A stretch of 56,110 nucleotides of DNA from a virus (taxonomy: Duplodnaviria > Caudoviricetes), in the IMG/VR virus record IMGVR_UViG_3300030098_005697, positions 1-56,110 of that record; one strand, written 5' to 3'. This document shows positions 10,165 through 24,760 of the stretch, in pieces (position 1 is the stretch's first letter; the number at the start of each line of letters is the position of its first letter). Under the pieces are notes generated by a model, which saw nothing but the letters and a program-made list of their open reading frames with translations, was not told the origin of the DNA and made no database searches. Both the position numbers and the translations under genes were made by a program.

Positions 10165-10217
10165 AGGTTTAATCCTTTTCGCCTGAGAGACTCGCCCCTC
10201 TCAGGCGATTTTGTTTT

Positions 10218-10475
10218 CTACTCTTCTTCTGAAGAGCTTGTGATTTGAGACAACCCTTCTTGTAGAAGGAATTCGATAGTTGAGTTGGTAGAAATGGAGG
10301 CAGCAGGGAATGACCTTCTAAGCTCCTCTGCCAACCCATCGAGTCTCTCCCAAAATTCTTGGGGCAACCGTAGGGGCCGCCGCTTTCGATCTCGCGCCCT
10401 TGTTGTACCATTCCGGGCAGAGTTCAGGAAGGGGGATTCTTCCGCTTTCAACATCCCGCGTATTGTCAACTTCAT
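10218..10475 (-). CDS. Ribbon-helix-helix (Arc/CopG-like) DNA-binding protein
   Basis: RPLRLPQEFWERLDGLAEE...STNSTIEFLLQEGL strand-helix-helix pattern. Start MKLTIRG with AGGAG and ATGA overlap. Confidence 0.7.
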   Translation of the reverse strand: MKLTIRGMLKAEESPFLNSARNGTTRARDRKRRPLRLPQEFWERLDGLAEELRRSFPAASISTNSTIEFLLQEGLSQITSSSEEE

Positions 10476-10837
10476 ACATTCTCCTGTTTGATCCAAAGTC
10501 TTGGCCGCTTCCCGGCTGTTCTCCAAACTTGCTTCCGAACATACCCCCCAGCCCGAAGTACATTTGCAATTTGAATCTTTGCTTTGTGGTGGCCGAAAAG
10601 TATCTCATTTGGAAATAGGGCAGTAATCATCTCTTCCATTGAGAAGCCCCGTTTCTCATCTTGTAGTCTTTGGGCCACAACCAAGATGGCCTGAGCCGTC
10701 CTTTGAATCTCGGTTGTTCCTTGCGCTCTCTCCTCCAGCATTGAGAGAGCTTCCCCAATGAGAAACTCTGGAGAGGTCCCAAGCTGAGAAGAGAGGGCCG
10801 ACACCCTCTGCTGGAACGTTTCACTTAAAATCATCAT
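10472..10837 (-). CDS. Putative DNA-binding protein (N-terminal RHH-like, C-terminal winged-helix-like)
   Basis: ILSETFQQRVSALSSQLGTSPEFLIGEAL and IANVLRAGGYVRKQVW. Start re-set to 10837 after AGGAGG. Confidence 0.55.
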   Translation of the reverse strand: MMILSETFQQRVSALSSQLGTSPEFLIGEALSMLEERAQGTTEIQRTAQAILVVAQRLQDEKRGFSMEEMITALFPNEILFGHHKAKIQIANVLRAGGYVRKQVWRTAGKRPRLWIKQENV

Positions 10838-10856
10838 GACCTCCTGTGTCTCTAAT

Positions 10857-10885
10857 AAACTACCATATCGGGGGTATGGTGTCAA
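10857..10885 (-). promoter_or_regulatory. Sigma70-type promoter of the replication operon with internal operator-like palindrome
   Basis: TTGACA-N17-TAGTTT with extended -10 TG. ACCATA-N7-TATGGT inverted repeat at 10862-10880. Confidence 0.7.
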
Positions 10886-11323
10886 TGCTTAGACTTGTCA
10901 ATCAGGTGTCAAGGTATCGATGGAACGTTGCAGATACATCCCATAACCTTTAGAGTGTTTTACCCCCTGAAAATGCAGTTAGAACCTACTCTAAAAATGC
11001 TCTAAACCTCGTGAGTGGAGGGGGTCTAAACTGTATGGTATAAACTACCATGTACCACGTAGGTGGTACTTTTAGGTAAAGAGTGTATGATGACCCCCCA
11101 CTCTGGATTGTCTGAGTAGTCAGCGAAAATACCCTTCGGAACTATCATACTCCCAGAACTGGATTGACTTGACTAACGCCACAGGACCTCGTGAGTGTAG
11201 TCCCTACCAGAAAATGGGGTTTCTTTGCCTGATATCTACATCTCTTATAATCGTGTGTAGTGGGTATAAGTTCCGGCGAACGTTCCAGATAAAGTCAATA
11301 CCCTACAACACAGGCAAATTGGG

Positions 11324-11352
11324 TTGCATAAACGTGGCTTTCTCGGTAGTAT
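11324..11352 (+). promoter_or_regulatory. Sigma70-type promoter for the isolated plus-strand gene
   Basis: TTGCAT-N17-TAGTAT about 55 nt upstream of AAGGAG-ATG. Confidence 0.55.
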
Positions 11353-11408
11353 CCTCTTGGCATACCCGGATTCACCGGGCGGGCGATGTCCCGTAAGAGT
11401 CTAAGGAG

Positions 11409-12314
11409 ATGACGATGCCTCATATCAAACCAAAACATTTACATCCTCAACGCGGAACTGGTTACCATGGTGCTCTCCTGGGCATTGCAGAGGAAGCGAT
11501 AGCTGAAAACGACCTCGTAATTGCTATTGGCTACGACGGAGAACGGATCAAATTTCGCCAAGCAGATACTGATGCCGGTGGAAGAGATATTGGGATCATG
11601 GGTGTAGCTGACCATGCTGCTGGTGTTGGAGAATCTCTTCGAGTTGTTTCATACAAGCTCATTAAAAACGTAGACACCAGTGCTGTATTTGCTGCTGGCT
11701 CTCCAGTTTATGTATCTGATACCGCAGGCGGATGGTCTGCGGCTTCCGGTGCAGTTGGAATCGTTGCTGGTCAAGCACTTGAAAAGCATGCTTCTACTGG
11801 CGCTGTCTTGTTGGCTCCTGGTATGACCAACGCTCGGATGCAGAAAAAACGCGTGATTGCTTTGACGAATGCAACAACAACAGCACGCACAATGCTTGCG
11901 GATGAATCTGGCGCACTCGTTACATTGGACCCCAACACCAATACTGCAACTACAATCACTGTGACCTTGCCTGCTATCGCTGGGACTGCTGGTATCTATT
12001 ATGATTTTGCAATCATCAAAGATATGCAACATACCGGAGCCGATATCATTATCAATACAGCCGGAGCGAGTGAAGCCAACTTTGTTGGATTCCTCACTCA
12101 AGGCACTCCCCAGATTGCCGAGGGCGGGAGCGCCACACATGCAGCATCTGTAAACGTTCTTGAGATTGCACATGGAACGATTACCTTTGATGCATCTGTA
12201 AGCCTAACAACTGGGAATACAAAGTTTCAGGTTATCTCTGATGGAGTCCAGTGGATTATCTCTGGAAACAGTACAGCGGTCAGTGGTGTTACAAACCCAG
12301 TTCTGAGTAACTAA
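11409..12314 (+). CDS. Probable virion decoration/head-fibre protein
   Basis: N-terminal cement-like domain (AEEAIAENDLV...IMGVA...AGSPVYVSDTAG), then Thr/Ala/Gly-rich beta domain (LADESGALVTLD...VTLPA...YYDF). Confidence 0.55.
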   Translation: MTMPHIKPKHLHPQRGTGYHGALLGIAEEAIAENDLVIAIGYDGERIKFRQADTDAGGRDIGIMGVADHAAGVGESLRVVSYKLIKNVDTSAVFAAGSPVYVSDTAGGWSAASGAVGIVAGQALEKHASTGAVLLAPGMTNARMQKKRVIALTNATTTARTMLADESGALVTLDPNTNTATTITVTLPAIAGTAGIYYDFAIIKDMQHTGADIIINTAGASEANFVGFLTQGTPQIAEGGSATHAASVNVLEIAHGTITFDASVSLTTGNTKFQVISDGVQWIISGNSTAVSGVTNPVLSN

Positions 12315-12333
12315 GCCAGCGTAAATCGCAGAC

Positions 12334-12368
12334 AAAAAAAAGCCCCTGGCCATTACGACCAGGGGCTT
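12334..12368. terminator. Intrinsic terminator between convergent genes (U-run on minus strand)
   Basis: 10-bp stem AAGCCCCTGG/CCAGGGGCTT with a 9-nt loop, preceded by an A8 run. Confidence 0.85.
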
Positions 12369-12390
12369 ACTTGTTTCTATTGAAACTTAT

Positions 12391-12582
12391 CTATTCTTTT
12401 CTGAACCCATCAAACCACGGACCATACTTCTTCGTCCTCCTCTGGGCTTCCTCTGAGGTCGCGGTTCTGCTGGAGGTCTCGGGATCATTACAATGTTCCC
12501 GCGCTTCTTCCTCGGTGAGTCCCGTTCTCACCACCTCTGCATCTCGGGACCTATTTGCAAAGCACCTAATTATTGTGTACAT
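12391..12582 (-). CDS. Small conserved-looking phage protein
   Basis: MYTIIRCF...TGLTEEEAREHCNDPETSSRT...GPWFDGF. GGAGG RBS. Pattern recalled from small phage early proteins, not verified. Confidence 0.7.
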   Translation of the reverse strand: MYTIIRCFANRSRDAEVVRTGLTEEEAREHCNDPETSSRTATSEEAQRRTKKYGPWFDGFRKE

Positions 12583-12763
12583 TTCGAACCTCCTCCTCCA
12601 GGGCACGAACCAAACCCCAAAACTCAGGGTCTTCCTCAAGGGGAATCGGGGAGTCTCCCCGAGCCGAGATATAAATGGTGAGCCTGTCAGCCTTAATGGC
12701 CAACTCACTGGGCACACGCAACTTGTATTCCCCAAATAGTTGTAGTTGTTTCTTGTCTTTCAT
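12566..12763 (-). CDS. Hypothetical protein
   Basis: 65-aa ORF with GGAG RBS, tightly packed in the operon. Confidence 0.6.
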   Translation of the reverse strand: MKDKKQLQLFGEYKLRVPSELAIKADRLTIYISARGDSPIPLEEDPEFWGLVRALEEEVRNVHNN

Positions 12764-12769
12764 ATTTGA

Positions 12770-13690
12770 TTACTCCATAAGTTGAACGATTGCGGTGGTA
12801 GCAATACCATCAATTTCATCGCATCTTGTTTTGATGCTCTCCAAACCCCCGCCAAAGATTTTAGCGTAGCGTTCTGCACGCTCCTGGAGGCTGATTGCAT
12901 CCTCTCTCCGAGACTCCAGTGCACGCTGGCCTTGAGAACCCGATAGGATTTGAGCTTCCAACTCATCAGCTTTCTGTTGAATCTCCCGCTCTGCTCTTTC
13001 AACAATGGTTCGAACCCCCTTTGGGTCCATTGCTGTCCGAAGCCGGTACAATCGATTACCCTCGTATGCTTTCTCCAGGCAAGCTCCAAGCCACGCCCAG
13101 GTTTTGACATATTTCTCAGGGAGCCAGTAAACTCCTCCACGAGATCGCAGGGAAGTCCCGTCCATCCTCCAGCAAGCATCTGCCAATGCCTTGCTGACCT
13201 TTGCCGATGGCACCTTGCCTAACTCCACATGGTAGAAGGCTCGAAGGGAAACAATGGTTGGGTGCTCCTTCGGAACTGGGTTTCCTGTTTTAACAGAGAA
13301 CAACTCTGGTTCCTGGCCATCCTTTGGTACTGGAACTGAGAACAGCACCTCAGTACCATTTACTGGGAGACCATTTTCCTCAGTAGCGAATCTTCGCGCT
13401 ACTTGGTATCCGCTGTTCTTCTTCTTCTCCAAGGGTTCAATGACTGCTCCCATTGGGGAAAAGACTTTAGCCAGAGCCTTCTTTAACGCGGCTAAACGCG
13501 TGTTCCTTTCAGGCAGGCACTTGATGAAGCCTCCACGAGGGGGAATAACTCCCCGACTTGCAGCATGCGCATCACACGCCTCCAAGTTTCGCTTCAACGT
13601 TTCCCAGTTTGTGCTCTCGGTGAGCGACCATAGGACAACACAGCCCGAAAGGCTGACGCTCTTCTCTTCTACTTTGCCTGTTATAGACAT
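12770..13690 (-). CDS. DUF6744-like protein associated with MoxR/vWA modules
   Basis: GCVVLWSL N-terminus, LRSRGGVYWLP motif and C-terminal coiled coil. Adjacent to the vWA gene. Family name from recollection. Confidence 0.55.
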   Translation of the reverse strand: MSITGKVEEKSVSLSGCVVLWSLTESTNWETLKRNLEACDAHAASRGVIPPRGGFIKCLPERNTRLAALKKALAKVFSPMGAVIEPLEKKKNSGYQVARRFATEENGLPVNGTEVLFSVPVPKDGQEPELFSVKTGNPVPKEHPTIVSLRAFYHVELGKVPSAKVSKALADACWRMDGTSLRSRGGVYWLPEKYVKTWAWLGACLEKAYEGNRLYRLRTAMDPKGVRTIVERAEREIQQKADELEAQILSGSQGQRALESRREDAISLQERAERYAKIFGGGLESIKTRCDEIDGIATTAIVQLME

Positions 13691-13721
13691 TGCTTTCTCC
13701 AGTTGGTTTTCCTACCTCGAA

Positions 13722-13781
13722 ATTGAGTGCAGGCCGAGACCCACCAACATCGCTGCTGGTGGGCCAAGGTCTGAACTCAAT
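13722..13781 (-). ncRNA. Repeated intergenic hairpin, copy 1
   Basis: UUGAGUUCAG...CCCACCA/UGGUGGG...CUGCACUCAA. Starts on the vWA gene UGA. Confidence 0.75.
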
Positions 13782-15111
13782 CGTCAACGACGATTTTCTT
13801 CATCCACACGGGCACTCCTCTTCCACCATTATTGCAGTGTCCCAAAATCACTGCGATTTGTTTGCAACCTTTAGAGGGCTTCAATGGCCACGGGGTATAG
13901 CCATCTGTCAACGTGACAATAATGTTGGGCCGAGGTTTCAGGGCCAGAGCAGCTTCAATTCCAACCGTCATATCAGTACCTCCCCGCCCTGTTATCTTAA
14001 TATCTTGCGCTCTCCGGAACACTTGAGCTTCCCCTGCTCTGGTATCGCAGGGAATAGCTCTTACCTTTGCACGCTTCAGAACCCGCACCGCCTCATCAAT
14101 CTCTGACAAAGCAGCCGAAACGTCGGCATCATTCATGGACCCCGAAGTATCAACCACAAAACACACACTGGGAATAGGACTTACCATCCCAGCCAGAACT
14201 ACACCCTCCTGGGCAGTTGCCTGGAGCATCGAAGGAGACCGGTAACTTTTCTCTGCTCTCCCCTTTACCCAAACTTCCGCCTTCTTTAGTGCAGACTTGA
14301 AGGCGTTCTGCCACTTCACCTTTGGAGGCTTTAATGGAGAGGTGAGACGACTGACCCAGTTTCCGGGGAGGTCTCCCCTTGCCTGGGAAGATGTCGCAAT
14401 AGCCTCAGCCACTTGCCGCTTCATCAATCGGGCTTCCGCCCCAGAGACTCCAGGACTTCCACCTTCATCGGGAGGAGCTTCTTCCCAAGGACGGGGAACA
14501 CCGTCCACGATACTCCCACAGTCACCATTTCCCGGAGATGCACCAGAGGACTCTTCTCCCTCACCCTCCTGGGCATCATCTCCTCCTCCCCCTTCCCCAT
14601 TTTCGTCCCCATCTTCGTCCCCATCTTCTCCATCTCCATCCTCTGGGGGTTCTTCTTTCTGGAGGAGGTCATAGTATTGCTCTGCTGAGAGGTCAGCGGA
14701 CCAACCAAACTTCTCTGGCTGGAGAGCATCGGGAGGAAGCATCCGACGGAGCTTTGGACAGCAGTTTATTTCCAAGTCGCACGCAACGTTCCAAAGTTTG
14801 GGGTCACGGGAACCCCTCCGCTCGTGGTGTTCCAATACACCATGAAAGATTTCATGGCCAATTAGGCCCGTAAACTCTGTCTTGGAAAGCCCCTCAACAA
14901 ATTTGGGGGAAAGATAGACCCTCCAGAACTGATCCATGGCAGCAGTCTGCACTTCATCCGACCAGATAAACTGAACGCGACAAACTGCCGACGGAAGGTA
15001 AGGAAACCCCACCGGAGTATACCGACTCTCCCCCGGCTTGCCAATGGCAACCGGGTTTAGGAGGCGCGCCATAACGCCCTCTAATTTCATGCGTAGTTCA
15101 CTACTAACCAT
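13777..15111 (-). CDS. DUF2201-type metallopeptidase-vWA domain protein
   Basis: HEIFH zincin motif, WNVACDLEIN, acidic linker, MIDAS DTSGS...GGTD...LTDGY. Confidence 0.9.
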   Translation of the reverse strand: MVSSELRMKLEGVMARLLNPVAIGKPGESRYTPVGFPYLPSAVCRVQFIWSDEVQTAAMDQFWRVYLSPKFVEGLSKTEFTGLIGHEIFHGVLEHHERRGSRDPKLWNVACDLEINCCPKLRRMLPPDALQPEKFGWSADLSAEQYYDLLQKEEPPEDGDGEDGDEDGDENGEGGGGDDAQEGEGEESSGASPGNGDCGSIVDGVPRPWEEAPPDEGGSPGVSGAEARLMKRQVAEAIATSSQARGDLPGNWVSRLTSPLKPPKVKWQNAFKSALKKAEVWVKGRAEKSYRSPSMLQATAQEGVVLAGMVSPIPSVCFVVDTSGSMNDADVSAALSEIDEAVRVLKRAKVRAIPCDTRAGEAQVFRRAQDIKITGRGGTDMTVGIEAALALKPRPNIIVTLTDGYTPWPLKPSKGCKQIAVILGHCNNGGRGVPVWMKKIVVDD

Positions 15112-16111
15112 GCTTCACCTCTGTGATTCTCCAACCGAGGACCTCTCCAGACTCTGGGTATCGCCTCCGAAACTGGGCTTCCCCTAAGTACCCCAGTTGG
15201 GTACCTGCCTTGGGCCAGTGCCCACCGTGCTCATAGTTATTTTCAACTGCCACAGAGGCAGGAGTGGGAGTACCAATTTTATACCTCCAGTTGAACACTC
15301 TTCTCCCCGTTCCGGGGTGACGGTACATTCTCTCTACTGGTTCCTTGTATACAACAAGACCCCCGCCAAGCTCTTCCAGCACAACAACTCTTGTGCCCTC
15401 AGTGTTGAAGGCATGAAAGTACTTCTTAACAGTGGGCCAATGGCCACTAACTTCTTTATCAGGAAAGCTTTTATTGGCAGCATCTCGCAGGCCATCTCCT
15501 TGAAAGTTTCCTGGTAGGGAGTAGAGAAAAGTTCTCTTGTGGAATTGAAACTTTCTCTGCCCTTGACTTCGCATCCAGAGAACGCGGGCATGAGCACTTC
15601 CACGTCCATACCTAATACTTGCATAATCACCCCACTTGGGGACAATCGCCTGTGCCGCTTCCCGGTGTGCTTGAAGTTCTTCGCGAAGGACCTTTGCTCC
15701 TCGAATAAGGGGAGCAGGAATATCACTACGTTTTTGGTTGTGTCTCCCGATGCCTGGGTAATTCTTCCCGTTCGGGAAGTGCGCTCTCCAAGCATCCCGA
15801 ATCTGGTAGCACCGGCATATCCCGGTGTTGGTTTCTCCAGCCAAGCCAAGCAGCCCAGCAATCAGGTCCTCTTCGGATACCCCATCTGTGACCTCTTGGT
15901 GGTCATGAAGAAACAAGTCTCCATTCCACCGCAGGGAAATGCGGTGCCTTTTCCCCATGCAGTTAACGTTCGCTGTAACTGGCCCCTCCCAGGGGGAGCC
16001 AACAGCCTTGTGCTTTCGCACAAGCTTCAACTGCTTCTTTCTGTTCGCTCTTGCGCGCCGCTCCTGGCGCTTCCTTAACTTTCGATTTTCTCTTCGTGTT
16101 GCTTTACTCAT
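15104..16111 (-). CDS. Hypothetical basic protein
   Basis: Start MSKATRREN follows AGGAG. Arg/Lys-rich N-terminus. Confidence 0.7.
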   Translation of the reverse strand: MSKATRRENRKLRKRQERRARANRKKQLKLVRKHKAVGSPWEGPVTANVNCMGKRHRISLRWNGDLFLHDHQEVTDGVSEEDLIAGLLGLAGETNTGICRCYQIRDAWRAHFPNGKNYPGIGRHNQKRSDIPAPLIRGAKVLREELQAHREAAQAIVPKWGDYASIRYGRGSAHARVLWMRSQGQRKFQFHKRTFLYSLPGNFQGDGLRDAANKSFPDKEVSGHWPTVKKYFHAFNTEGTRVVVLEELGGGLVVYKEPVERMYRHPGTGRRVFNWRYKIGTPTPASVAVENNYEHGGHWPKAGTQLGYLGEAQFRRRYPESGEVLGWRITEVKHG

Positions 16112-16191
16112 TACTTTGTCTCCTGATTTTGCTTGGTTTTGGTTCTTCTTCCTATTCTTCCTCTTCCTACTCTGAACTTTAGTACAAACAT
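16111..16191 (-). CDS. 26-aa basic micro-protein (unannotated)
   Basis: GGAGAAAGT-ATG leader like other early genes. MFVLKFRVGRGRIGRRTKTKQNQETK. TAATG coupling to the next gene. Confidence 0.5.
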   Translation of the reverse strand: MFVLKFRVGRGRIGRRTKTKQNQETK

Positions 16192-16272
16192 ACTTTCTCC
16201 TTTGGTGTAAACACCACGAGAGGCACCCGCTCCAGAGAACGAGTGCCCCAAGCACTGCCGACACAATCAGAG

Positions 16273-17538
16273 TTAAGCGCCCATGTAGGCCTTAATTACA
16301 GGGGCAAACGCCCTCATGGCCGGGGGAACTTTCCCCTTGAGAGCCTTCTTGATGTGGGGTTTCTGAAACTGACCATCGGACATCAAACTCTTCACAGTCC
16401 GAACAATCATGCCCTCCTTCCCAGTGACCTCTTTGGCATTGAGAAGGAAGTCCCATGCGGCAAGCCACGCGGTTGCATCCTTCTCCTGGGCACTCTTCTC
16501 AAGTGCCAGAGAAACCACGTTCTGGCAAATCACCAAGACTTTGTGGTTATCCTTGGCGTACATTTCAAAGATACCTTTGACGGCATCTTTGTCCCCTGCC
16601 ACCCGGAGGCATTCCCTGGGAGATGGCAAATCCCAGTTGGCCTTGAAGGCCAAAAACTGATTGGTGATATGGCTGCTTATGCAGCCTTGGAGCAACTTCA
16701 TCTCGGCATCTGCCAAGATGGAAGCCGGAACCTTCCCCTCTTTTCGAAGGGCTTCACACGCAGTCAGCAGGAAGATGGCTCCCAGCCAAGAGCGAGAGTT
16801 GGCACAGGGACCAGCCTCTCCTAAGAGAACTCCATCCAGGGCATTCTCTGGAGAAGGTTTCGATAGCATGTACTCTCCATTCTTCTCTAAGAACGCCGAG
16901 ACTAATGTCCTGGTAGACACTGCTTCTCGCCTCCAACCGGGAGGGAGGCTTATGATGGGAGGAGTGGGGGTTGGATTGTCTTCACCTCGGGAGAAGGCTT
17001 CAAAGAAGTCCTCTGTATAAGAATCATATTCCTCCCAACTGGGAGCCTTCATGATTAGCTGGCAAAATCTGCTGGCCATCGGCCCTGAGAATTGTTCCCC
17101 AGTTGTACTGCTCTCTGGAGGGTTCAACATCGCTACAATGGCGGTGTTCTTCGGTAGCCGAACTGTTCCCAGTTGTGCCCCTGTGAGCACGTTCTGGAAT
17201 GCACTCTGAACATGCGTTCCACCCTCCACTGCCTCATCGATTATCAGGCATCCTTCCCCAGGCTTCGCTTCCAAAACAGCATCAAATATTCCACTGGGAA
17301 GGAAGCTTGCAACGTTCGCCCCCGGGCGGATGTATGGAATACCCGCTACCGCCTCGGGAATAATTTGTGAGCAACTAAAGTGTGCCCACGTTCGGAACAT
17401 TGCATTGACAATTGCTTTCACACGAGCGCTCTTGCCGACGCCAGGGTCACCAATCAAGGCGACTCCCAGACCCTCTTCAGTTTCCTGTTGTACTCTAAGG
17501 CCGATTTGAAGGGCCATTATTGTTGCTGACATTTTCAT
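16273..17538 (-). CDS. MoxR-like AAA+ ATPase
   Basis: Walker A GDPGVGKS, Walker B LIIDE, sensor-1 AMLNP, arginine finger MASRF, sensor-2 NSRSW. Confidence 0.88.
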   Translation of the reverse strand: MKMSATIMALQIGLRVQQETEEGLGVALIGDPGVGKSARVKAIVNAMFRTWAHFSCSQIIPEAVAGIPYIRPGANVASFLPSGIFDAVLEAKPGEGCLIIDEAVEGGTHVQSAFQNVLTGAQLGTVRLPKNTAIVAMLNPPESSTTGEQFSGPMASRFCQLIMKAPSWEEYDSYTEDFFEAFSRGEDNPTPTPPIISLPPGWRREAVSTRTLVSAFLEKNGEYMLSKPSPENALDGVLLGEAGPCANSRSWLGAIFLLTACEALRKEGKVPASILADAEMKLLQGCISSHITNQFLAFKANWDLPSPRECLRVAGDKDAVKGIFEMYAKDNHKVLVICQNVVSLALEKSAQEKDATAWLAAWDFLLNAKEVTGKEGMIVRTVKSLMSDGQFQKPHIKKALKGKVPPAMRAFAPVIKAYMGA

Positions 17539-17566
17539 TTTTGCTTTCTCCTATACTGACTCGAAA

Positions 17567-17624
17567 TTGAGTACAGTAAAAGGCCCACCAAGCTTTCGAC
17601 TGGTGAGCGATTTGCTGTACTCAA
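17567..17624 (-). ncRNA. Repeated intergenic hairpin, copy 2
   Basis: UUGAGUACAG...CUCACCA/UGGUGGG...CUGUACUCAA, then UUUCGAG as in copy 1. Starts on the upstream UGA. Confidence 0.75.
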
Positions 17625-17818
17625 GCCCTGAAATACTCTCCAAAGAGGAGCACCAACTTCTTCTCCCCAAAGGAAGCCGCTACTAAGTAGTGCTCCCCCA
17701 AAGACCTTCTTACAGCACTGTCTTCAACTGGAACCCAAACAGGTCCCAAGTTCTCCCAGGTCTCTCCGGAGACCTCCAACACTGTGTCTAAGAAGGATGC
17801 CAATGTTTCATGTTTCAT
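17621..17818 (-). CDS. Hypothetical protein
   Basis: 65-aa ORF in the early array. Confidence 0.6.
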   Translation of the reverse strand: MKHETLASFLDTVLEVSGETWENLGPVWVPVEDSAVRRSLGEHYLVAASFGEKKLVLLFGEYFRA

Positions 17819-17839
17819 GTTTATTCTCTCTTGAAAATC

Positions 17840-17915
17840 GGGGTAAACCTACCAAACCGTGTGAACCTGGCAAACCCCTATCAGTGTTTCTGGAGGTCAC
17901 CCCCCAGAAACTGTC
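17840..17915 (-). other. Second repeated intergenic motif, copy A
   Basis: GACA-[stem-loop]-UGAUAGGGG-UUUGCCA-GGUU...CGGUUUG. Similar to 19642-19711. Confidence 0.6.
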
Positions 17916-17942
17916 TCAATGCAACAAAACTAAGAATTCCTT

Positions 17943-18128
17943 TCACTCATCGGGATTCTCCTCTGCCTTGCTACGGCAAAATACACACTCAAAGTGTTTT
18001 GGGTCGATGAATCTTGGGCTCTCAGCCAACTCACGGTCAGCGCAGACCGTGAGTTTGATTGTAAACAAAACGGCGTCCTTGTATTTATTAGTGCGGGATA
18101 CGCACTTAGGATTACTACACCTAAGCAT
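17943..18128 (-). CDS. Small zinc-finger protein
   Basis: MLRCSNPKC...FECVFC. AAGGAG RBS. Confidence 0.7.
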   Translation of the reverse strand: MLRCSNPKCVSRTNKYKDAVLFTIKLTVCADRELAESPRFIDPKHFECVFCRSKAEENPDE

Positions 18129-18174
18129 GAACCTCTCCTTTTTCGTTTCCAAGGGTTGTTGTTGTTTTGGTCTC

Positions 18175-18339
18175 TCAGGCAAGAAGCCTAAGGACCTCCC
18201 AGACACAAACAGACACTGCTAAAGCATTGACTCCCATCAACACAAGAAGCGCTCGAATCTGAGCACTCCCCGAGGACCAGCAATTGGAGAAAGTTAAGAT
18301 GAGCCAGAACCAAATCGGGAGCATTAGAAGGTAGAACAT
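18175..18339 (-). CDS. 54-aa membrane protein (below ORF-track cutoff)
   Basis: MFYLLMLPIWFWLILTF...ALLVLMGVNALAVSVCVW, two hydrophobic stretches. TAATG coupling. Confidence 0.5.
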   Translation of the reverse strand: MFYLLMLPIWFWLILTFSNCWSSGSAQIRALLVLMGVNALAVSVCVWEVLRLLA

Positions 18340-18506
18340 TAGCTGTTCTCCCGGGGAAGAAGACCGGCCTGAAAGGCTTCAATTAACTGGTCAATATTCC
18401 GGTCTTCCTTTTCCAACTTCTCCAAGCGCTCAGTCTCTGTACTGGGAACGCTCCCAGCACAACCGGTTTGAATCTCCCAAATCATTGCTTCATAATTGCT
18501 TGGCAT
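18339..18506 (-). CDS. 55-aa hypothetical protein (below ORF-track cutoff)
   Basis: AAGGAGCAAGCAAA-ATG leader. MPSNYEAMIWEIQTG...LLPRENS. Confidence 0.6.
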   Translation of the reverse strand: MPSNYEAMIWEIQTGCAGSVPSTETERLEKLEKEDRNIDQLIEAFQAGLLPRENS

Positions 18507-18531
18507 TTTGCTTGCTCCTTTGTTTTCCTGC

Positions 18532-18592
18532 TTGATTACAGGCGAGCAACCACCAGAGAGGAACCCCGCTGGTAGTTACCGATTGTATTCAA
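18532..18592 (-). ncRNA. Repeated intergenic hairpin, copy 3
   Basis: UUGAAUACA...GUAACUACCAG/CUGGUGGUUGC...CUGUAAUCAA. Starts on the upstream UGA. Confidence 0.75.
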
Positions 18593-18861
18593 ACAGCTTT
18601 CACATACTCAGGATGGAGAGAAACTTTGATACCTCCATCTCTATCGAGAGAGAAGGCGTCCCCACGAGGGCCATAACCTTCACATAGGTACGGCAAACCC
18701 TGATGCCAAACCGTGATCTGGCCAGCATACGAAGTTACTCTTCCATTGCTGACCGTGTTGTATGACCGGTCTTCCAGTCCCTGAATCTCATCCCAACGAT
18801 TTGAAGCATTCCGGCGGAATGCCTTGGACTTTGCTTTCTCAATAATCTCTTTCTTATTCAT
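18589..18861 (-). CDS. Hypothetical protein
   Basis: 90-aa ORF with AAGGAG RBS. Confidence 0.7.
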   Translation of the reverse strand: MNKKEIIEKAKSKAFRRNASNRWDEIQGLEDRSYNTVSNGRVTSYAGQITVWHQGLPYLCEGYGPRGDAFSLDRDGGIKVSLHPEYVKAV

Positions 18862-18882
18862 CTTTCTTACTCCTTCCCCTGC

Positions 18883-18942
18883 TTGAGTGCAGGCGAGCAG
18901 CCACTAAAGAGTCTCTCCTTAGTAGCTACCGGCTCCACTCAA
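18883..18942 (-). ncRNA. Repeated intergenic hairpin, copy 4
   Basis: UUGAGUGGAG...GUAGCUACUAA/UUAGUGGCUGC...CUGCACUCAA. Starts on the upstream UGA. Confidence 0.75.
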
Positions 18943-19151
18943 ACAGCTATTTCATTGAAGCTCTTTAGTTTCTTGTTGTGTTCTGAAACTTTCAAGGCCT
19001 GGATGGCCAGTTTCAGGTGGCCTTGAATCCGCCGGATTTGGGGGTTCTCTTGGCATCCAGCATACTCAACCAACTCTTCCAACTCTTCCAGCGCCAATTC
19101 AAGGTGCCGCTGAGTGACCGAGTTGAGAGCTTGTTCTCGAAGATTAGACAT
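18939..19151 (-). CDS. Hypothetical helical protein
   Basis: Start MSNLREQ follows GGAGG and overlaps the upstream stop. Confidence 0.6.
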   Translation of the reverse strand: MSNLREQALNSVTQRHLELALEELEELVEYAGCQENPQIRRIQGHLKLAIQALKVSEHNKKLKSFNEIAV

Positions 19152-19566
19152 TGCCAACCTCCAGCTTCCGTTCGAAGCTTCCATCTTTTCCCGTCCAGGA
19201 GCCAGTTGCGTCGGGACCCCATTGCAGGAAAGTTCCCTTTTCCGTGTTGACAAAGCTTCCCTCGGAACTCCATTCAAATCCCCAGGGGCGCAATTTCTCC
19301 TGGACTTCCAGGAGGTCATCCCCCAAAGAGGACTTCAACATCTCCTCCATCCCCATCTTCTTTGCTTCCTGGAAACAGACAAACATGATTTGCGCCGCAA
19401 ACTTGATGGCTTCTTCTCGGTTTCGGTGGTGTGCCTCCCGAAGAACTTTGTCAATCTCTTCGCGCACGAGGTCCACCACATGCCAGGAGATAATCTCCTC
19501 GGCCATAAGGTTCGAAATGGTTTCTTGAAGTTCTCTCAGTTTTCTTTGCTCTGAATATCGAAGCAT
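19144..19566 (-). CDS. Hypothetical protein
   Basis: 140-aa ORF with AGGAGAAAGCAAG-ATG leader, directly downstream of the hammerhead. Confidence 0.7.
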   Translation of the reverse strand: MLRYSEQRKLRELQETISNLMAEEIISWHVVDLVREEIDKVLREAHHRNREEAIKFAAQIMFVCFQEAKKMGMEEMLKSSLGDDLLEVQEKLRPWGFEWSSEGSFVNTEKGTFLQWGPDATGSWTGKDGSFERKLEVGNV

Positions 19567-19587
19567 CTTGCTTTCTCCTATTTGGTT

Positions 19588-19641
19588 GCTGTTTCATCCT
19601 TCTATGGAATCTTCAGTGACCCAGAATCAGGGCCATACAGC
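19588..19641 (-). ncRNA. Type III hammerhead ribozyme
   Basis: GCUGUA^UGGCCC-UGAUUCU-GGGUCA-CUGAAGA-UUCC-AUAGAA-GGAU-GAAACAGC. Full core, stems I-III, GUA triplet, loop I UUCU complementary to loop II AGAA. Confidence 0.85.
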
Positions 19642-19711
19642 GCAAACTCAACAAACCGCAAAAACGTGGCAGACCCCCTATCACTTCTTCGAGGTAGCCC
19701 CTCGAAGTGTC
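19642..19711 (-). other. Second repeated intergenic motif, copy B
   Basis: GACA-[CUUCGAGG/CCUCGAAG]-UGAUAGGGGG-UCUGCCA-CGUU...CGGUUUG. Abuts the hammerhead. Confidence 0.6.
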
Positions 19712-19796
19712 GTTTGTTTGAGATGTTTCCCCAGGAAGGTCCCGGGTTTGGGTCCCCCTGGGGAGGTCCCCAGGGATGGTCTCGATTTTCAGCCAC

Positions 19797-19825
19797 AAGA
19801 AAGGGGGTCCCGAAATGGGACCCCC
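19797..19825 (-). terminator. Intrinsic terminator after the first early gene
   Basis: 9-bp stem GGGGGUCCC/GGGACCCCC followed by UUUCUU. Confidence 0.7.
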
Positions 19826-19852
19826 AGAGAAGGAAGAGAGAAGAGGGAAGCG

Positions 19853-20722
19853 CTACCCCAGGAGACCCTTCTCTTGCGCGGCATTCTGAGCACCAGCCAG
19901 CGCAGCCCGAGCGGCTGCAAGTTGAGCCTCCAACTTCGCAACGGCACTGCGAGAAGCTTCCAACTTCTCCAGTTCTTCGGCCGGGTTGAGTAGACCAACA
20001 GTACCCCCCAGGACCTCCGCAATATCCGCGTCAAGCAAGTCCCACTCAAGACCGTTGTTATCAGTCAGGTCTCCATCGTTTTGAAGTAGTGACCACAAGA
20101 CCTCCCGACACCGGTTGAGAAGGGAAGCGTAGATTGGGTTCACAGGCACCACTTGAGTGGAACCCTTCAGGGCTGCTTTCATCTCCTCAATGTCTGCGCT
20201 GAGGTCTCCTGAAGCGCCCCCAGGGGAGTGCATGGAGAACGTCACGGGGGAGGTCTTGACGGTACCGCACCACTTCCCGAATCCCATCTTGTCGGGGCTA
20301 GCTGCGTTCAAGTTGAAAGCAGGCATCTCCTGAAGTGGCGAGAACATGTGACCCGTAGGGCTACCGTTCACATACTGACGGAACACCAATGCGGTAGCTC
20401 GTTTTGTCTTCAGGCCAGCGGACCCCTTCCGACGTCCCACTTGAACCAGGGACGTGGGAGTCAATGCCCAACCCGAGAAGTCAGGACCGAAAGTAGTCGT
20501 CACCTTGGAGACCTTGGCTCGATTCGCCTCCTGGAGAGCAGCGTGCGCAGCGGCATCTTCCCATGGGTTTGTGACGTCCTCTTGGAGAGCGTCTTCAGGG
20601 GAAGTCTCTGGGGAGGCCTCGGAAGAGGTCTCTTGGGGGGAGGTCTCTGGGGAGGTCTCCAAGAGAGTGTCAAGAAAGGTCGTCTCGGAAGAGGTCTCTT
20701 GGGCGTTGTTGTTGTTGCTCAT
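19853..20722 (-). CDS. First gene of the leftward unit; acidic protein with ETS(P/S) repeats and C-terminal coiled coil
   Basis: GGAGAAAGCA-ATG leader. MSNNNNAQETSSETT...ETSPETSPQETSSEASPETSPED. Confidence 0.75.
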   Translation of the reverse strand: MSNNNNAQETSSETTFLDTLLETSPETSPQETSSEASPETSPEDALQEDVTNPWEDAAAHAALQEANRAKVSKVTTTFGPDFSGWALTPTSLVQVGRRKGSAGLKTKRATALVFRQYVNGSPTGHMFSPLQEMPAFNLNAASPDKMGFGKWCGTVKTSPVTFSMHSPGGASGDLSADIEEMKAALKGSTQVVPVNPIYASLLNRCREVLWSLLQNDGDLTDNNGLEWDLLDADIAEVLGGTVGLLNPAEELEKLEASRSAVAKLEAQLAAARAALAGAQNAAQEKGLLG

Positions 20723-20770
20723 TGCTTTCTCCATTGTCTGGGACGGGTTTTCTGGAGGTCGTCGCCAAAG

Positions 20771-20982
20771 CCATTTTCGGCGCAGACTCCCCCGTCCCCC
20801 GGTCCCCAACGGTGCACCGGACCCCAACCTTATCACACGTCTATAACCCCGTGTTCATCGGCATCGTAGAGGACCCCCCTGAACAGTTGTACAGTGTTTT
20901 ATCCAGTGATTCTCCCATCTTCGGCGTATATCCTCCACTTTCATCTATTCAGACCCCGTGGTCAATCTCGCCATTTTCGGCG
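20771..20982. repeat. Short direct repeats in the strand-switch region
   Basis: CCATYTTCGGCG at 20771, 20915 and 20971. ACCCCGTGKTCA twice (about 20846 and 20953). Confidence 0.65.
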
Positions 20983-21530
20983 TTCTACCGTAGCCCGTGA
21001 CACCACAAAACACCACATGCACCGCGATATCAACTGCCTTGACCCCTTACTTGTCAGGTAATTGTCAAGCCCTATTCTATAGGAGGAACGCCCGATATCG
21101 AGGACCAGCCCATATCAGGCGTTTGTCGGTGTCTATGGCCCGATTGCTTCTAAGCTCTTCCAGGTGTCAAGGTACCTCCAAGACTGTGCAAGCCGTCCAG
21201 CGTGCTATGAGCCGCCTCCCTGGGGGGAGGGTTGGAGGTCTCCTGGTTCGGTCTTTCAGTGCGTGGATTTCAACGGCCGTCAAACAGTGCACCCAGTGTT
21301 CGGGCGCATCCTGGTTGGAGACAAGGGAAGACTGGGCGCCAAGTCGCGCGCTCTCTCCTGCTCTCCTCCCCCGCGCGCGCTCTCCTTCTCTACAGCAGAG
21401 GAGACAACCCCGCGAAAAGAAGAGACGACTTTCATCCTGGGGAAAGAGGGACGAATGGCCTGCCCCCTATCATCCCGTCGGGTAGGCTGCCCAAGGGCAT
21501 CCCCCCTTTGGGGATGGACCATGCCTTTCT

Positions 21531-22463
21531 TTGGAGTCCCGCTCAACAATGAATCAAGTTTCCCGTTTTCAGAATTGTCGATTACCCCCTTCGAAACTGA
21601 TGCATTTCCTATTTCATAGCAAAACTCTGCGAGAATCTGGACTTCCAAAACGGATGATGCTGGATCAATTATGTGCAACGTTCGGGGTGTATCCTCCGAA
21701 GTTTCAAAAAGAGAAAATGTGGAAGATTTCAGTTATCCCGCAGGTCCGAAGGAACATGGATACTCTTCGTGCGCATCTGATGAAGGCTCCGGTGCTCCTG
21801 TCTGGTCTCCTGGACGAGAGGATGTTTGTAGCCCGCCCGGAGTGGACGGAGGCTCAACGGTATGCGTTCAATCTAAAAGCTCCTCCAAGTCCCTATGAGG
21901 TTGCTTGCGCGCTGCTCCAGGCCCCTACGGCTCAGTTCTGGGGATTGGCGAGGGCCAAGGGGTTCAACCGATGCCGGTATAGTATGTTGTTGTGGTGGGT
22001 GGCTGGATTACCCGAGGAGGCCATGATCCATCACCTGGGCATCTCAAGCGATGAGCTTGATTGGAATCTCGCAAAGTGCATCGAGGACTTGATGGAGACA
22101 GACAACTTCTCCTTCTGGGCATTAAATCCATTGATGGATGTAGTCTGCACCACACAGTCGATGAGAGTCATCCTTCGGAGGATGCGAGAGGGGAGGAAAA
22201 CGGGGACTGGTGCGGGGTTGGGGGAGCGAGAAGCGAAGGACCGACTGTTTGCCCATCCGTATTATCGAGCACAGTTGTATTCGGGGAAGAGCGATAACCC
22301 ACAACCCAGGCCCAACTTCACTCCAGGGATTATTTGGGAAACACTCGACGAGCGCAGGAAATGGGAGAGGACTTGGGATGGGAAAGGGCTGGAGTGGCTG
22401 ATGATTCGGAGAAGGATGGTGAGGACATTGGCACCACAGTGGGCACAACTTCCCATTTATTGA
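21531..22463 (+). CDS. Hypothetical protein with possible sigma70 region-4-like HTH (candidate late regulator)
   Basis: LLWWVAGLPEEAMIHHLGISSDELDWNLAKCIEDL. First gene of the rightward unit. Start codon uncertain. Confidence 0.45.
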   Translation: MESRSTMNQVSRFQNCRLPPSKLMHFLFHSKTLRESGLPKRMMLDQLCATFGVYPPKFQKEKMWKISVIPQVRRNMDTLRAHLMKAPVLLSGLLDERMFVARPEWTEAQRYAFNLKAPPSPYEVACALLQAPTAQFWGLARAKGFNRCRYSMLLWWVAGLPEEAMIHHLGISSDELDWNLAKCIEDLMETDNFSFWALNPLMDVVCTTQSMRVILRRMREGRKTGTGAGLGEREAKDRLFAHPYYRAQLYSGKSDNPQPRPNFTPGIIWETLDERRKWERTWDGKGLEWLMIRRRMVRTLAPQWAQLPIY

Positions 22464-22478
22464 TGTTATAGTCAGGCC

Positions 22479-22886
22479 ATGAGTAAGAAGAAGTCCACCC
22501 CTCAGGTCCAGTCCCCTCCCGTTGCTCTGGATTCTCTGCTCGGTGCAGGGAAGGTGCGGGATTTGTCGAACGTTACAGATATCTGTGCAGAAGCAATGAG
22601 CGCACTGCTGCATAAGCAGTTAGGAACTGCCCAATCGAGAGAACTGAGACAGTGGACAGAGTTGATGTTCACTTGCCTCCAGGTGGAGAAGGGTGTTCAC
22701 AGCGATGGAGATGTGAACTACATCACGCAGCTTGTGAATATTGAGGCTGCGAAGATGGAAGCACCACAGATCGTCCAAGTTGAGCCAGCCCAGATAAAAG
22801 ATGTTGGGACTCCGACTGAAGAAATTGTGGAGGCCGAAGTTTCAGACGATGTAGATTGGGATTCCCTGCTACAAGCGACTGCTTAA
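22479..22886 (+). CDS. Hypothetical protein, positional candidate for terminase small subunit
   Basis: 135 aa, helical, acidic tail, upstream of TerL. Confidence 0.4.
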   Translation: MSKKKSTPQVQSPPVALDSLLGAGKVRDLSNVTDICAEAMSALLHKQLGTAQSRELRQWTELMFTCLQVEKGVHSDGDVNYITQLVNIEAAKMEAPQIVQVEPAQIKDVGTPTEEIVEAEVSDDVDWDSLLQATA

Positions 22887-22898
22887 AAGGAGCACAAA

Positions 22899-23096
22899 AT
22901 GCCTACAGATAAACGGTATGCGGATCACCGATTGAGTGCTGTTCGAGAGGCAATGGGAGCAGAGTTTGAGTCTCCGCCAAAACCCCAGCCCGAACGGCAA
23001 GAAGGAGTTGACCCAGAGCCATTGCGTCCTGGAGAAGGTCACCCTCGGACAACTGCTGCAAGAGAGGCGATACACGCCATCAATGAGGCAGTGTGA
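22899..23096 (+). CDS. Hypothetical protein
   Basis: AAGGAG RBS and GTGA overlap with TerL. Confidence 0.55.
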   Translation: MPTDKRYADHRLSAVREAMGAEFESPPKPQPERQEGVDPEPLRPGEGHPRTTAAREAIHAINEAV

Positions 23097-24760
23097 GCGC
23101 ACAAGCAAGCCAGATCCTCTCCTTTCTCAGGGCACCATCCAAGTCGTTACCGGCATTGGGGCAGGTGCATGACCAGAAAACCGGAACTTTTGTCCAGTAT
23201 GATCCGACACGGCTAACGCACACTTTTCAGCAATGTGTGTTGGATTACATGACGAATCCACCCAGGACGAGTGACGGGCAGACTAAGTTCCTAACAGTGC
23301 TCACGGCTCGCCAGATGGGGAAGAGTTTGACGGCGGAGTATGCCTGTTATCCGAAAGCGGCGTACTCTCCTGGGTGGGACCATGTGTGTATTGCTGATAC
23401 CTCGGATCGTGCCGAGTATCTGCACAAGAGGGTTCATCATCTGCATGGGAAGTGGCCCGAGAAGTATCGGAGTCGAACGGTAACCAGCCGAGAGAGTCGG
23501 CAGTTGACGTTTCGGCCCTTAGAGGGTGGGAAGATGCGTATTCTCAGTGCCGAGAGTGGTGCTGTGGGTATTGGTCAGAGTCCTGACTCTTTTCATGCTT
23601 CAGAATGTGCTTTCTGGGCGGATTTTGCAGGCTCGATGTTCCTAATCTGGCCTTCTCTGGCAAATAGGGACCATGCTCTGGCGATATTTGAGTGTACGCC
23701 TTGGGAGGCAAGGAGCGATTGGCATGAGCACTGCCTTGAAGCCCGAAAAGGGATGGGGAGGCACATGTATAAGTTCTTCCCCTTCTGGGATGGGAAGCTC
23801 AACCAGAGAAAGTGGGATAATTCTTGGAAATTGGAGAATGATGAAGTTGACCTACTCTCTCGTTATGGTAACAAAGGCCTGAAGAAGGAAAATCTCGCGT
23901 TTCGTCGCATGATGCTGTCGATGGACGCTCAGTTGAGGCGAAAGCCAGAGTTTTTCAACGTTTTCTACCCATTTGATGATGTTTCGTGCTGGGTTTCGGC
24001 TGCAAATGCTGCAATTCCCAATCATGCCCTGGAAAAACACATCAACAAGGAGCTTACGGAGTGGCAAGCCCCCTATATGGAGTACGAGCAGCCAGAACCG
24101 GGTGCGGTTTACGTGATTGGGGCGGATCCAAGTGGTCATGCAGCGCGAGATCATGCCAGTTTTCAGGTCTTGAAGGTATATGATGGGGAATGGACCCAAG
24201 TTGCGACGTTTGCCACCCACTGCGACCCGCTGGTCTTTTCGCGGAAGCTTGAGCAGGTGGGGATAAAGTACAATAATGCGAATGTCGTAGTGGAATCAAA
24301 TGGTGTTGGCCAGAGTGTAATATCCTTGCTTCGAGAGTGGGATTATCCAAATATGTACTATGAAAAGAAGCGGAGGCCCGGATTCACCTCCACGGGCAAA
24401 AGCGTGGATATGGCCTTGGGGTGGACTGTCGATGCCCTGCTGGATGATCTCGTTCTGAATGACAAGGACACTCTGGTTCAACTAATGAGCTATAAGAACG
24501 ACAAGCGGATTGAAGAGGGTCCAAATAGCGAGATTGTCAGGGGCAAGGCCAGCAATCGCAGAAGAGACAGGCATCACTGGGACAAAGTGAGCGCCCTTCA
24601 GATGGCGGTTGTCGGCGCGAGGTCTGCACCTCGGAGATATAAGAAAGTTGCGCCAGATGATGAGGAGAATGTGATCGTTCTTCGCCGATATACCTTTAAC
24701 GAGAAGACCGAGCTTTTTAAGGCTCGGGAACGTCAAGACCGAAAGAAGTATTGGCTCTGA
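23093..24760 (+). CDS. terL: Terminase large subunit
   Basis: TARQMGKS Walker A, HASECAFW Walker B, ECTP coupling motif, nuclease IGADPS...VESNGVG...HWDKVSA. Confidence 0.93.
   Translation: MSAQASQILSFLRAPSKSLPALGQVHDQKTGTFVQYDPTRLTHTFQQCVLDYMTNPPRTSDGQTKFLTVLTARQMGKSLTAEYACYPKAAYSPGWDHVCIADTSDRAEYLHKRVHHLHGKWPEKYRSRTVTSRESRQLTFRPLEGGKMRILSAESGAVGIGQSPDSFHASECAFWADFAGSMFLIWPSLANRDHALAIFECTPWEARSDWHEHCLEARKGMGRHMYKFFPFWDGKLNQRKWDNSWKLENDEVDLLSRYGNKGLKKENLAFRRMMLSMDAQLRRKPEFFNVFYPFDDVSCWVSAANAAIPNHALEKHINKELTEWQAPYMEYEQPEPGAVYVIGADPSGHAARDHASFQVLKVYDGEWTQVATFATHCDPLVFSRKLEQVGIKYNNANVVVESNGVGQSVISLLREWDYPNMYYEKKRRPGFTSTGKSVDMALGWTVDALLDDLVLNDKDTLVQLMSYKNDKRIEEGPNSEIVRGKASNRRRDRHHWDKVSALQMAVVGARSAPRRYKKVAPDDEENVIVLRRYTFNEKTELFKARERQDRKKYWL

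Follow-up and report, generated by a model that had tools for sequence, protein, structure and literature searches.

In T7-like phages, hairpins located between the early genes are processed by RNase III, a route that relies on an enzyme of the host and on a long duplex. The synthetic insulator RiboJ, which is placed between a promoter and a ribosome-binding site, was derived from the hammerhead ribozyme of a plant satellite RNA, to which a hairpin was added. In E. coli, RiboJ raised protein levels 2- to 10-fold and transcript levels about 2-fold in the experiments summarised in PMC6206723. Bacteria and prophages commonly contain natural hammerheads of all three types, which often flank genes, as set out in the passages of Perreault et al. 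2011 (PMC3088659) on which we draw here. The same passages describe HHphage, a hammerhead of the haloviruses HF1 and HF2 that lies 13 nt before the start of an early helicase gene, with a transcript 5′ end mapped to within 3 nt of the cut. What hammerheads do in prokaryotes was presented as an open question, and one tied to phages, in the relevant part of a 2017 review (PMC6155905).

Here we describe a candidate type III hammerhead in the 5′ leader of a gene from an uncultured marine phage, and we consider it likely that this candidate is active and processes the leader. It shares with the type III hammerheads of phages and prophages (RF00008, clan CL00010) the core, the three helices with an open stem III, a non-G nucleotide at H17 and an intergenic position on the coding strand, and its U10.1-U11.1 mismatch is a variant already described in PMC3088659; it differs from them in scoring below what RF00008 reports, in having unusual loops and in being a single copy and not a cluster. 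Like HHphage, with which it is compared here from the description in PMC3088659 and not by sequence, it stands a few nucleotides before a start codon (21 against 13) in a region of a lytic phage genome devoted to early functions or replication, and the 5′ end mapped near the HHphage cut corresponds to the role that we propose for the candidate. HHphage, however, is a variant in the core, described as similar to a form dependent on very high Mg2+, comes from an archaeal virus of extreme halophiles and precedes a helicase gene, whereas our candidate has a canonical core, is marine and precedes an ORFan of 140 aa. RiboJ works as the candidate would, by stripping variable upstream RNA, but it is engineered, while the candidate occurs naturally and lacks an added hairpin. 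The outcome proposed for the candidate is also that of the T7-like RNase III hairpins, namely a cut in the leader of a polycistronic or read-through transcript and structured ends, except that the candidate would cut itself and leave 5′-OH and cyclic-phosphate ends.

The window analysed is the whole stretch of an IMG/VR virus record of 56,110 bases, which originates from marine metagenomes and has a completeness rating of 99%. No related phage was found with blastn among 50,697 phage records, and no related locus in back-translated searches with the two flanking genes and a nearby ATPase gene; a protein search with the 140-aa downstream product returned a single match, its own entry (99% identical). 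Contigs of the locus from three DNA sequencing runs were identical to the window, with zero variants, and the one RNA run examined yielded no sequence over the locus. Both genes flanking the hammerhead are on the minus strand, as is the element itself, and this arm of the genome encodes a DNA polymerase, a helicase, a primase, an exonuclease and a Sak4-like protein; structural genes occupy the opposite strand from about 23 kb on. We infer that the downstream gene is early, which is a reasonable label. It has no family in PHROGs or Pfam, and these two collections likewise gave nothing for the upstream gene, for three small neighbouring genes or for a 64-codon ORF in the gap. The structural arm also contains an ORF of 3389 codons (40692-50861, plus strand), for which PHROGs and Pfam were blank at the thresholds used. 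The upstream gene (327 codons, minus strand) probably starts at the ATG at 20723, behind a ribosome-binding box, rather than at the GTG at 20836, and it carries short tandem-like DNA repeats at 20592-20703 that encode a repeat rich in Glu, Thr, Ser and Pro near the N-terminus. The gap of 286 nt that separates this gene from the 140-aa gene holds a terminator-like hairpin, further hairpins and a repeated element in addition to the candidate. The features of the locus are the following, in the order of transcription:

19803-19825, minus: terminator-like hairpin with a T run, downstream of the upstream gene's stop at 19853 (called from a consensus scan only, which gave 8 sites against 6.7 expected)
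19642-19712, minus: repeated upstream element, with a hairpin at 19707-19687, a TGATAGGGGG box at 19683-19674 and about 30 conserved nt
19588-19641, minus: whole type III hammerhead candidate, with stem III open (from sequence, fold, descriptor and model R1)
19564-19587, minus: leader after the ribozyme, with an 8-nt spacer, the Shine-Dalgarno AGGAG at 19579-19575 inside a ATAGGAGAAAGCAA box and the ATG at 19566-19564
19144-19566, minus: downstream gene of 140 aa, with its ATG at 19566-19564

The initial annotation had proposed a type III hammerhead at 19641-19588 on the minus strand, and every part that it listed is present there. The parts can be laid out as follows:

19641-19637 with 19592-19588, minus: stem III, GCUGU with ACAGC, read from the sequence
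19636-19638, minus: cleavage triplet G16.2 U16.1 A17, with the predicted cut between 19636 and 19635
19635-19630 with 19622-19617, minus: stem I, UGGCCC with GGGUCA, 6 pairs of which one is G-U
19629-19623, minus: loop I, UGAUUCU, 7 nt
19610-19616, minus: catalytic core strand C3-A9, CUGAAGA, read from the sequence
19609-19606 with 19599-19596, minus: stem II, UUCC with GGAU, a U.U mismatch and 3 pairs
19605-19600, minus: loop II, AUAGAA, 6 nt
19592-19595, minus: G12 A13 A14 and A15.1 (GAAA), with GAA at 19595-19593 and A15.1 at 19592

The strand CUGAAGA agrees with the core C3 U4 G5 A6 N7 G8 A9, G12, A13 and A14 are all present, the A15.1-U16.1 pair is formed by A 19592 with U 19637, and H17, which has to be a nucleotide other than G after U16.1, is the A at 19636. 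Folding of the 54 nt with ViennaRNA gave the three-way junction as both the minimum-energy and the centroid structure (-14.7 kcal/mol), with three helices arranged round the core, of which stems I and II end in loops and stem III is open. In a context of 181 nt, the junction is retained in the minimum-energy fold, while the centroid has stems I and II and not stem III.

A departure from the canonical elements lies in stem II, in which U 19609 faces U 19596 and the G10.1-C11.1 pair is absent. This mismatch had been noted from the start as a deviation; its presence stands, and it is not new. Section 8 of PMC3088659 describes natural stem II helices that may begin with U10.1-U11.1, the most active and best tolerated of the mismatches, and others that are active in nature with only two pairs. 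Furthermore, when we searched IMG/VR with the candidate's core and stem II (CTGANGA, UUCC, 3-10 nt, GGAU, GAAAC), the pattern, mismatch included, was found in at least 119 viral contigs, a population whose counts, here and below, are not de-replicated and include close relatives that are not independent. A strict descriptor applied to the 119 listed loci (1,038,462 bases) identified 168 complete type III hammerheads; one or more are present in 97 of these loci, two or more in 44 and three or more in 20, and in all of the 44 multi-copy loci among the 119 listed the copies share one strand. By comparison, the candidate is a single copy in its own genome. Examples of loci with U.U members are L024:6219-6269, L039:11270-11320, L035:3171-3221 and L035:5952-6002. 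Loci L002 to L139 supplied 138 unique hammerhead sequences, 71 with the searched stem II and 67 without it, and in the latter positions 10.1 and 11.1 are G-C in 44, U.U in 16, A.A in 6 and G.U in 1. Given these counts, the candidate's U10.1-U11.1 is a common state in this large population of phage hammerheads, and the missing G10.1-C11.1 pair does not disqualify the candidate as a type III hammerhead.

The mismatch also tends to come with a particular nucleotide at the cleavage site. Among 54 bystander hammerheads, that is, neighbours of the pattern matches (L021 onward), 15 have U.U, and 13 of these 15 have A17, like the candidate; the G-C bystanders (n = 32) have C17 in 21 cases and A17 in 11. 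A literature search on the mismatch led only to PMC3088659 and to no mention of a link between U.U and A17; the supplement of that paper (Dataset S1, Figures S4-S8) may list such hammerheads together with their placements. Other searches added few sequences close to the candidate. A pattern built from its stem I and stem III flanks matched 19 loci, mostly with canonical G-C hammerheads and with only L009 close, and the stem II pattern with loops of 5-7 nt gave 10 loci, all of them among those already found. The stem III pair GCUGU/ACAGC is identical in the candidate and in L009, L059, L083, L090 and L032. As judged from sequence, no relationship links the candidate's phage to the other carriers of such hammerheads, with which it shares only a terminase of 22-23% identity and an HNH domain.

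A search with Infernal against the Rfam hammerhead models, which the initial annotation had put forward as a check, gave no match. Rfam at its gathering threshold reported no hammerhead in the whole window, stretches of 281 nt and 62 nt around the candidate returned nothing even at E up to 10, no hammerhead or other ribozyme appeared at E up to 5 in 10000-24000, and a separate search with the RF00008 model, whose gathering cut-off is 48.5 bits, did not report the candidate. The same model, however, also scores the relatives too low. In loci L024, L039 and L034, it reported 9 of the 13 hammerheads found by the descriptor, of which only one reached 48.5 bits; only 2 of the 5 U.U members of these loci were reported, at 31-32 bits. 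The blank Rfam result is thus weak evidence against the candidate, since RF00008 penalises U.U heavily and since the candidate's loops differ.

A dedicated covariance model, R1, has the hammerhead structure and was built from the 54 bystander hammerheads (alignment A1). None of its training sequences was picked by the candidate's stem II pattern, and the 19 loci of the stem I/stem III flank pattern were excluded from it. In A1, the core columns are invariant except for N7 and the GAAA is invariant; 13 of the 16 stem pairs vary on both sides with 95% of cells paired, which is covariation across the family and not among orthologues of this locus, in sequences for which pairing was a criterion of selection. 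Run over the whole window with filters off, R1 gave the candidate 38.4 bits over model positions 1-51 of 51, with an E-value of about 3e-9 that is rough owing to a short calibration, and gave the runner-up 10.1 bits, a gap of 28 bits that the calibration does not affect. On 100 family loci, R1 produced 177 matches, mostly of 60-73 bits, among which the candidate would rank about 158th. This places it in the lowest ninth by score, beside members with unusual loops (L091, L070, L101 and L042). Individual loci illustrate how far the two models diverge: R1 scored L009 at 58.9, L091 at 35.1 and L098 at 45.8 bits, and Rfam reports the hammerheads of none of the three. The full-length match to R1 bears out the assignment to type III, and the candidate is very probably a genuine yet divergent type III hammerhead of the U.U/A17 sort found in phages.

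The position of the candidate is also that of the family. The AGGAG begins 9 nt past the hammerhead, as first noted, and the ATG lies 21 nt past it. An ORF of at least 50 codons led by a Shine-Dalgarno sequence starts 10-39 nt downstream of 56 of the 138 family members, compared with 159 of 2760 random positions on the same strand. The candidate's 21 nt fall within the main mode of distances in the family, and L009 has the same layout at 22 nt. Within the window, the ATAGGAGAAAGCAA ribosome-binding box precedes four minus-strand genes, with exact copies at 19568-19581 and 17541-17554 and copies that are 86% alike at 18508-18521 and 20722-20735.

If the proposal of an active, leader-processing ribozyme is correct, the hammerhead would be transcribed along with the minus-strand genes, in the 5′ leader of the 140-aa gene, and the RNA would form the three-way junction and cleave itself 3′ of A17 (between 19636 and 19635). 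A 2′,3′-cyclic phosphate would stay on the upstream RNA, and the downstream mRNA would have a 5′-OH directly at the base of stem I, retaining the other 48 nt of the ribozyme with the ribosome-binding site 9 nt further on. Such a cut would separate the mRNA of the gene from whatever RNA lies upstream, be it RNA read through from the 327-codon gene or a short leader close to the promoter, and the mRNA would gain a 5′ end that is defined, base-paired and free of phosphate.

Upstream of the hammerhead lies the repeated element at 19642-19712. Its conserved nucleotides read TTGCCA...CGGTTTG...GTTT, and it ends exactly where stem III begins. The gene with its start at 17818 is preceded by a further copy (about 17905-17850), and a partial one occupies 21463-21472. 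The element may be a phage or host promoter; a scan of 17000-23000 with the sigma-70 consensus found nothing near it or near the hammerhead. Should it act as a promoter, the site at which transcription begins would decide whether the promoter-derived RNA holds the whole ribozyme, because an RNA that starts within or past 19641-19637 would be without the 5′ strand of stem III. The neighbouring genes offer another point of comparison. Their leaders carry plain hairpins in the corresponding position, followed by the same ribosome-binding box. These leader hairpins may be processing or stabilising elements, and they fit the idea of a slot that is shared by hammerhead and hairpins. Two repeats are found in these leaders: an inverted repeat with 24-nt arms in the leader of the ATPase gene (17567-17624), and a repeated 34-nt unit with a short hairpin at 18527-18560 and 18878-18911, upstream of the gene starts at 18506 and 18861.

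These elements can be combined into a bolder proposal, which we put forward tentatively and hold to be rather unlikely as a whole. The candidate would be a natural insulator of the RiboJ type set right after a promoter-like repeat, where it would remove the first nucleotides and the 5′-triphosphate or equalise the 5′ ends of promoter-derived and read-through transcripts. A Watson-Crick kiss between UUCU and AGAA would replace the loops usual in the family, and the ribozyme would be the answer of one phage at a place where the neighbouring genes use leader hairpins.

The proposed kiss leads to the question of how well the candidate would cut. UUCU in loop I (19626-19623) can pair with AGAA in loop II (19603-19600), and this complementarity, already pointed out in the initial annotation, holds; its interpretation as a tertiary contact does not have statistical support, given that 20% of composition-preserving shuffles of the loops equal it. 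The candidate is without the family's usual loops, of the GNGU type for loop I and AAAA or GAAA for loop II, and for this reason a tertiary contact of the kind that allows fast cutting at low Mg2+ is uncertain. Section 7 of PMC3088659 describes a loop pseudoknot as being used by about 40% of hammerheads, and the candidate's stem lengths, six positions for stem I and four for stem II, are suggestive only when set against the passages of that paper on loop pseudoknots.

It is here that the strongest rival explanation arises, in which the candidate is a decayed or weak hammerhead, whether by descent or by convergence, whose stems I and II make no working tertiary contact and which, at cellular Mg2+, is cut only slightly and serves mainly as a structured leader like the hairpins of its neighbours. 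The departure of the loops from the family consensus, the R1 score in the lowest ninth, the insignificant loop complementarity and a stem II of just three pairs and a U.U mismatch all agree with such a state, as do the hairpins that precede, by an equal distance, the ribosome-binding sites of three neighbouring genes with starts at 17538, 18506 and 18861. A good match to the consensus is also no guarantee of activity, as 14 of 18 matching candidates cleaved in vitro and 4 were inactive in the tests described in PMC3088659. Nevertheless, all the core positions are intact, which would not be expected after a loss of function; the passages of PMC3088659 cited above report natural activity for stem II helices with two pairs and for those that start with U.U, as well as the frequent use of loop pseudoknots; and L091, another member of the family, has the identical UUCU/AGAA loop pair. 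On balance, we regard a decayed or weak ribozyme as unlikely.

A further possibility is that an intergenic sequence happens to fit a small consensus, with neither ribozyme ancestry nor activity. The consensus is indeed small: the core alone (CTGANGA, 6-30 nt, GAAAC) has an expectation of 1.42 per window and was matched at least once in 73 of 100 shuffles, and the stability of the fold is ordinary (z = -1.38, with 17 of 200 shuffles folding equally well). The full descriptor, which demands the core, GAAA, U16.1, a non-G H17 and three stems, is far more selective, and the candidate is its sole match in 56 kb on both strands. Among 1500 dinucleotide-preserving shuffles of the window, 26 contained a loose match, 5 a match with at least 14 stem pairs and 1 a match equal to the candidate in every stem. 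Such rarity is convincing for one window, but it is insufficient alone across a scan of very many windows, in which a match of the 1-in-300 to 1-in-1500 class recurs often, and the passages of PMC3088659 on consensus searches do warn of chance matches in large databases. Taken with the blank Rfam result and with no relatives found for the locus, this would leave room for coincidence. Coincidence, however, does not account for the R1 result (E about 3e-9 and 28 bits above the next match in the window), nor for the traits of the family that go beyond the core, namely the UUCC/GGAU stem II, U.U combined with A17 and the stem III pair GCUGU/ACAGC, nor for an intergenic position on the coding strand with a start codon 21 nt downstream, the modal placement in the family. 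We thus consider a chance match to be very improbable.

Least credible of all is that the region is a small protein-coding gene, the 64-codon ORF at 19796-19602 on the minus strand, whose open frame spans the larger part of the gap and, from its 5′ side, two-thirds of the element, but which would start at a GTG within the T run of the terminator without the Shine-Dalgarno box that its neighbours have, would run through three hairpins to yield a product rich in Pro, Gly and Arg that is blank in Pfam, and would leave the score of the hammerhead model unexplained.

Returning to an active ribozyme that processes its leader, which is the reading that we favour, this type of hammerhead is already known to be common in phages and its placement in a gene leader has a published precedent, so that one more case alone changes little. 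The wider comparison says more. Many phage hammerheads have a stem II that begins with U10.1-U11.1, mostly together with an A at the cleavage site, and annotation pipelines probably under-count phage hammerheads, given that Rfam missed the candidate and that 12 of 13 relatives fall below its cut-off. As an argument from position, the placement of about four in ten family members at 10-39 nt before a start codon supports the view that these ribozymes may set the 5′ ends of mRNAs. For this idea of mRNA 5′ ends set by ribozymes, the candidate, being a single copy, would provide a clean construct.
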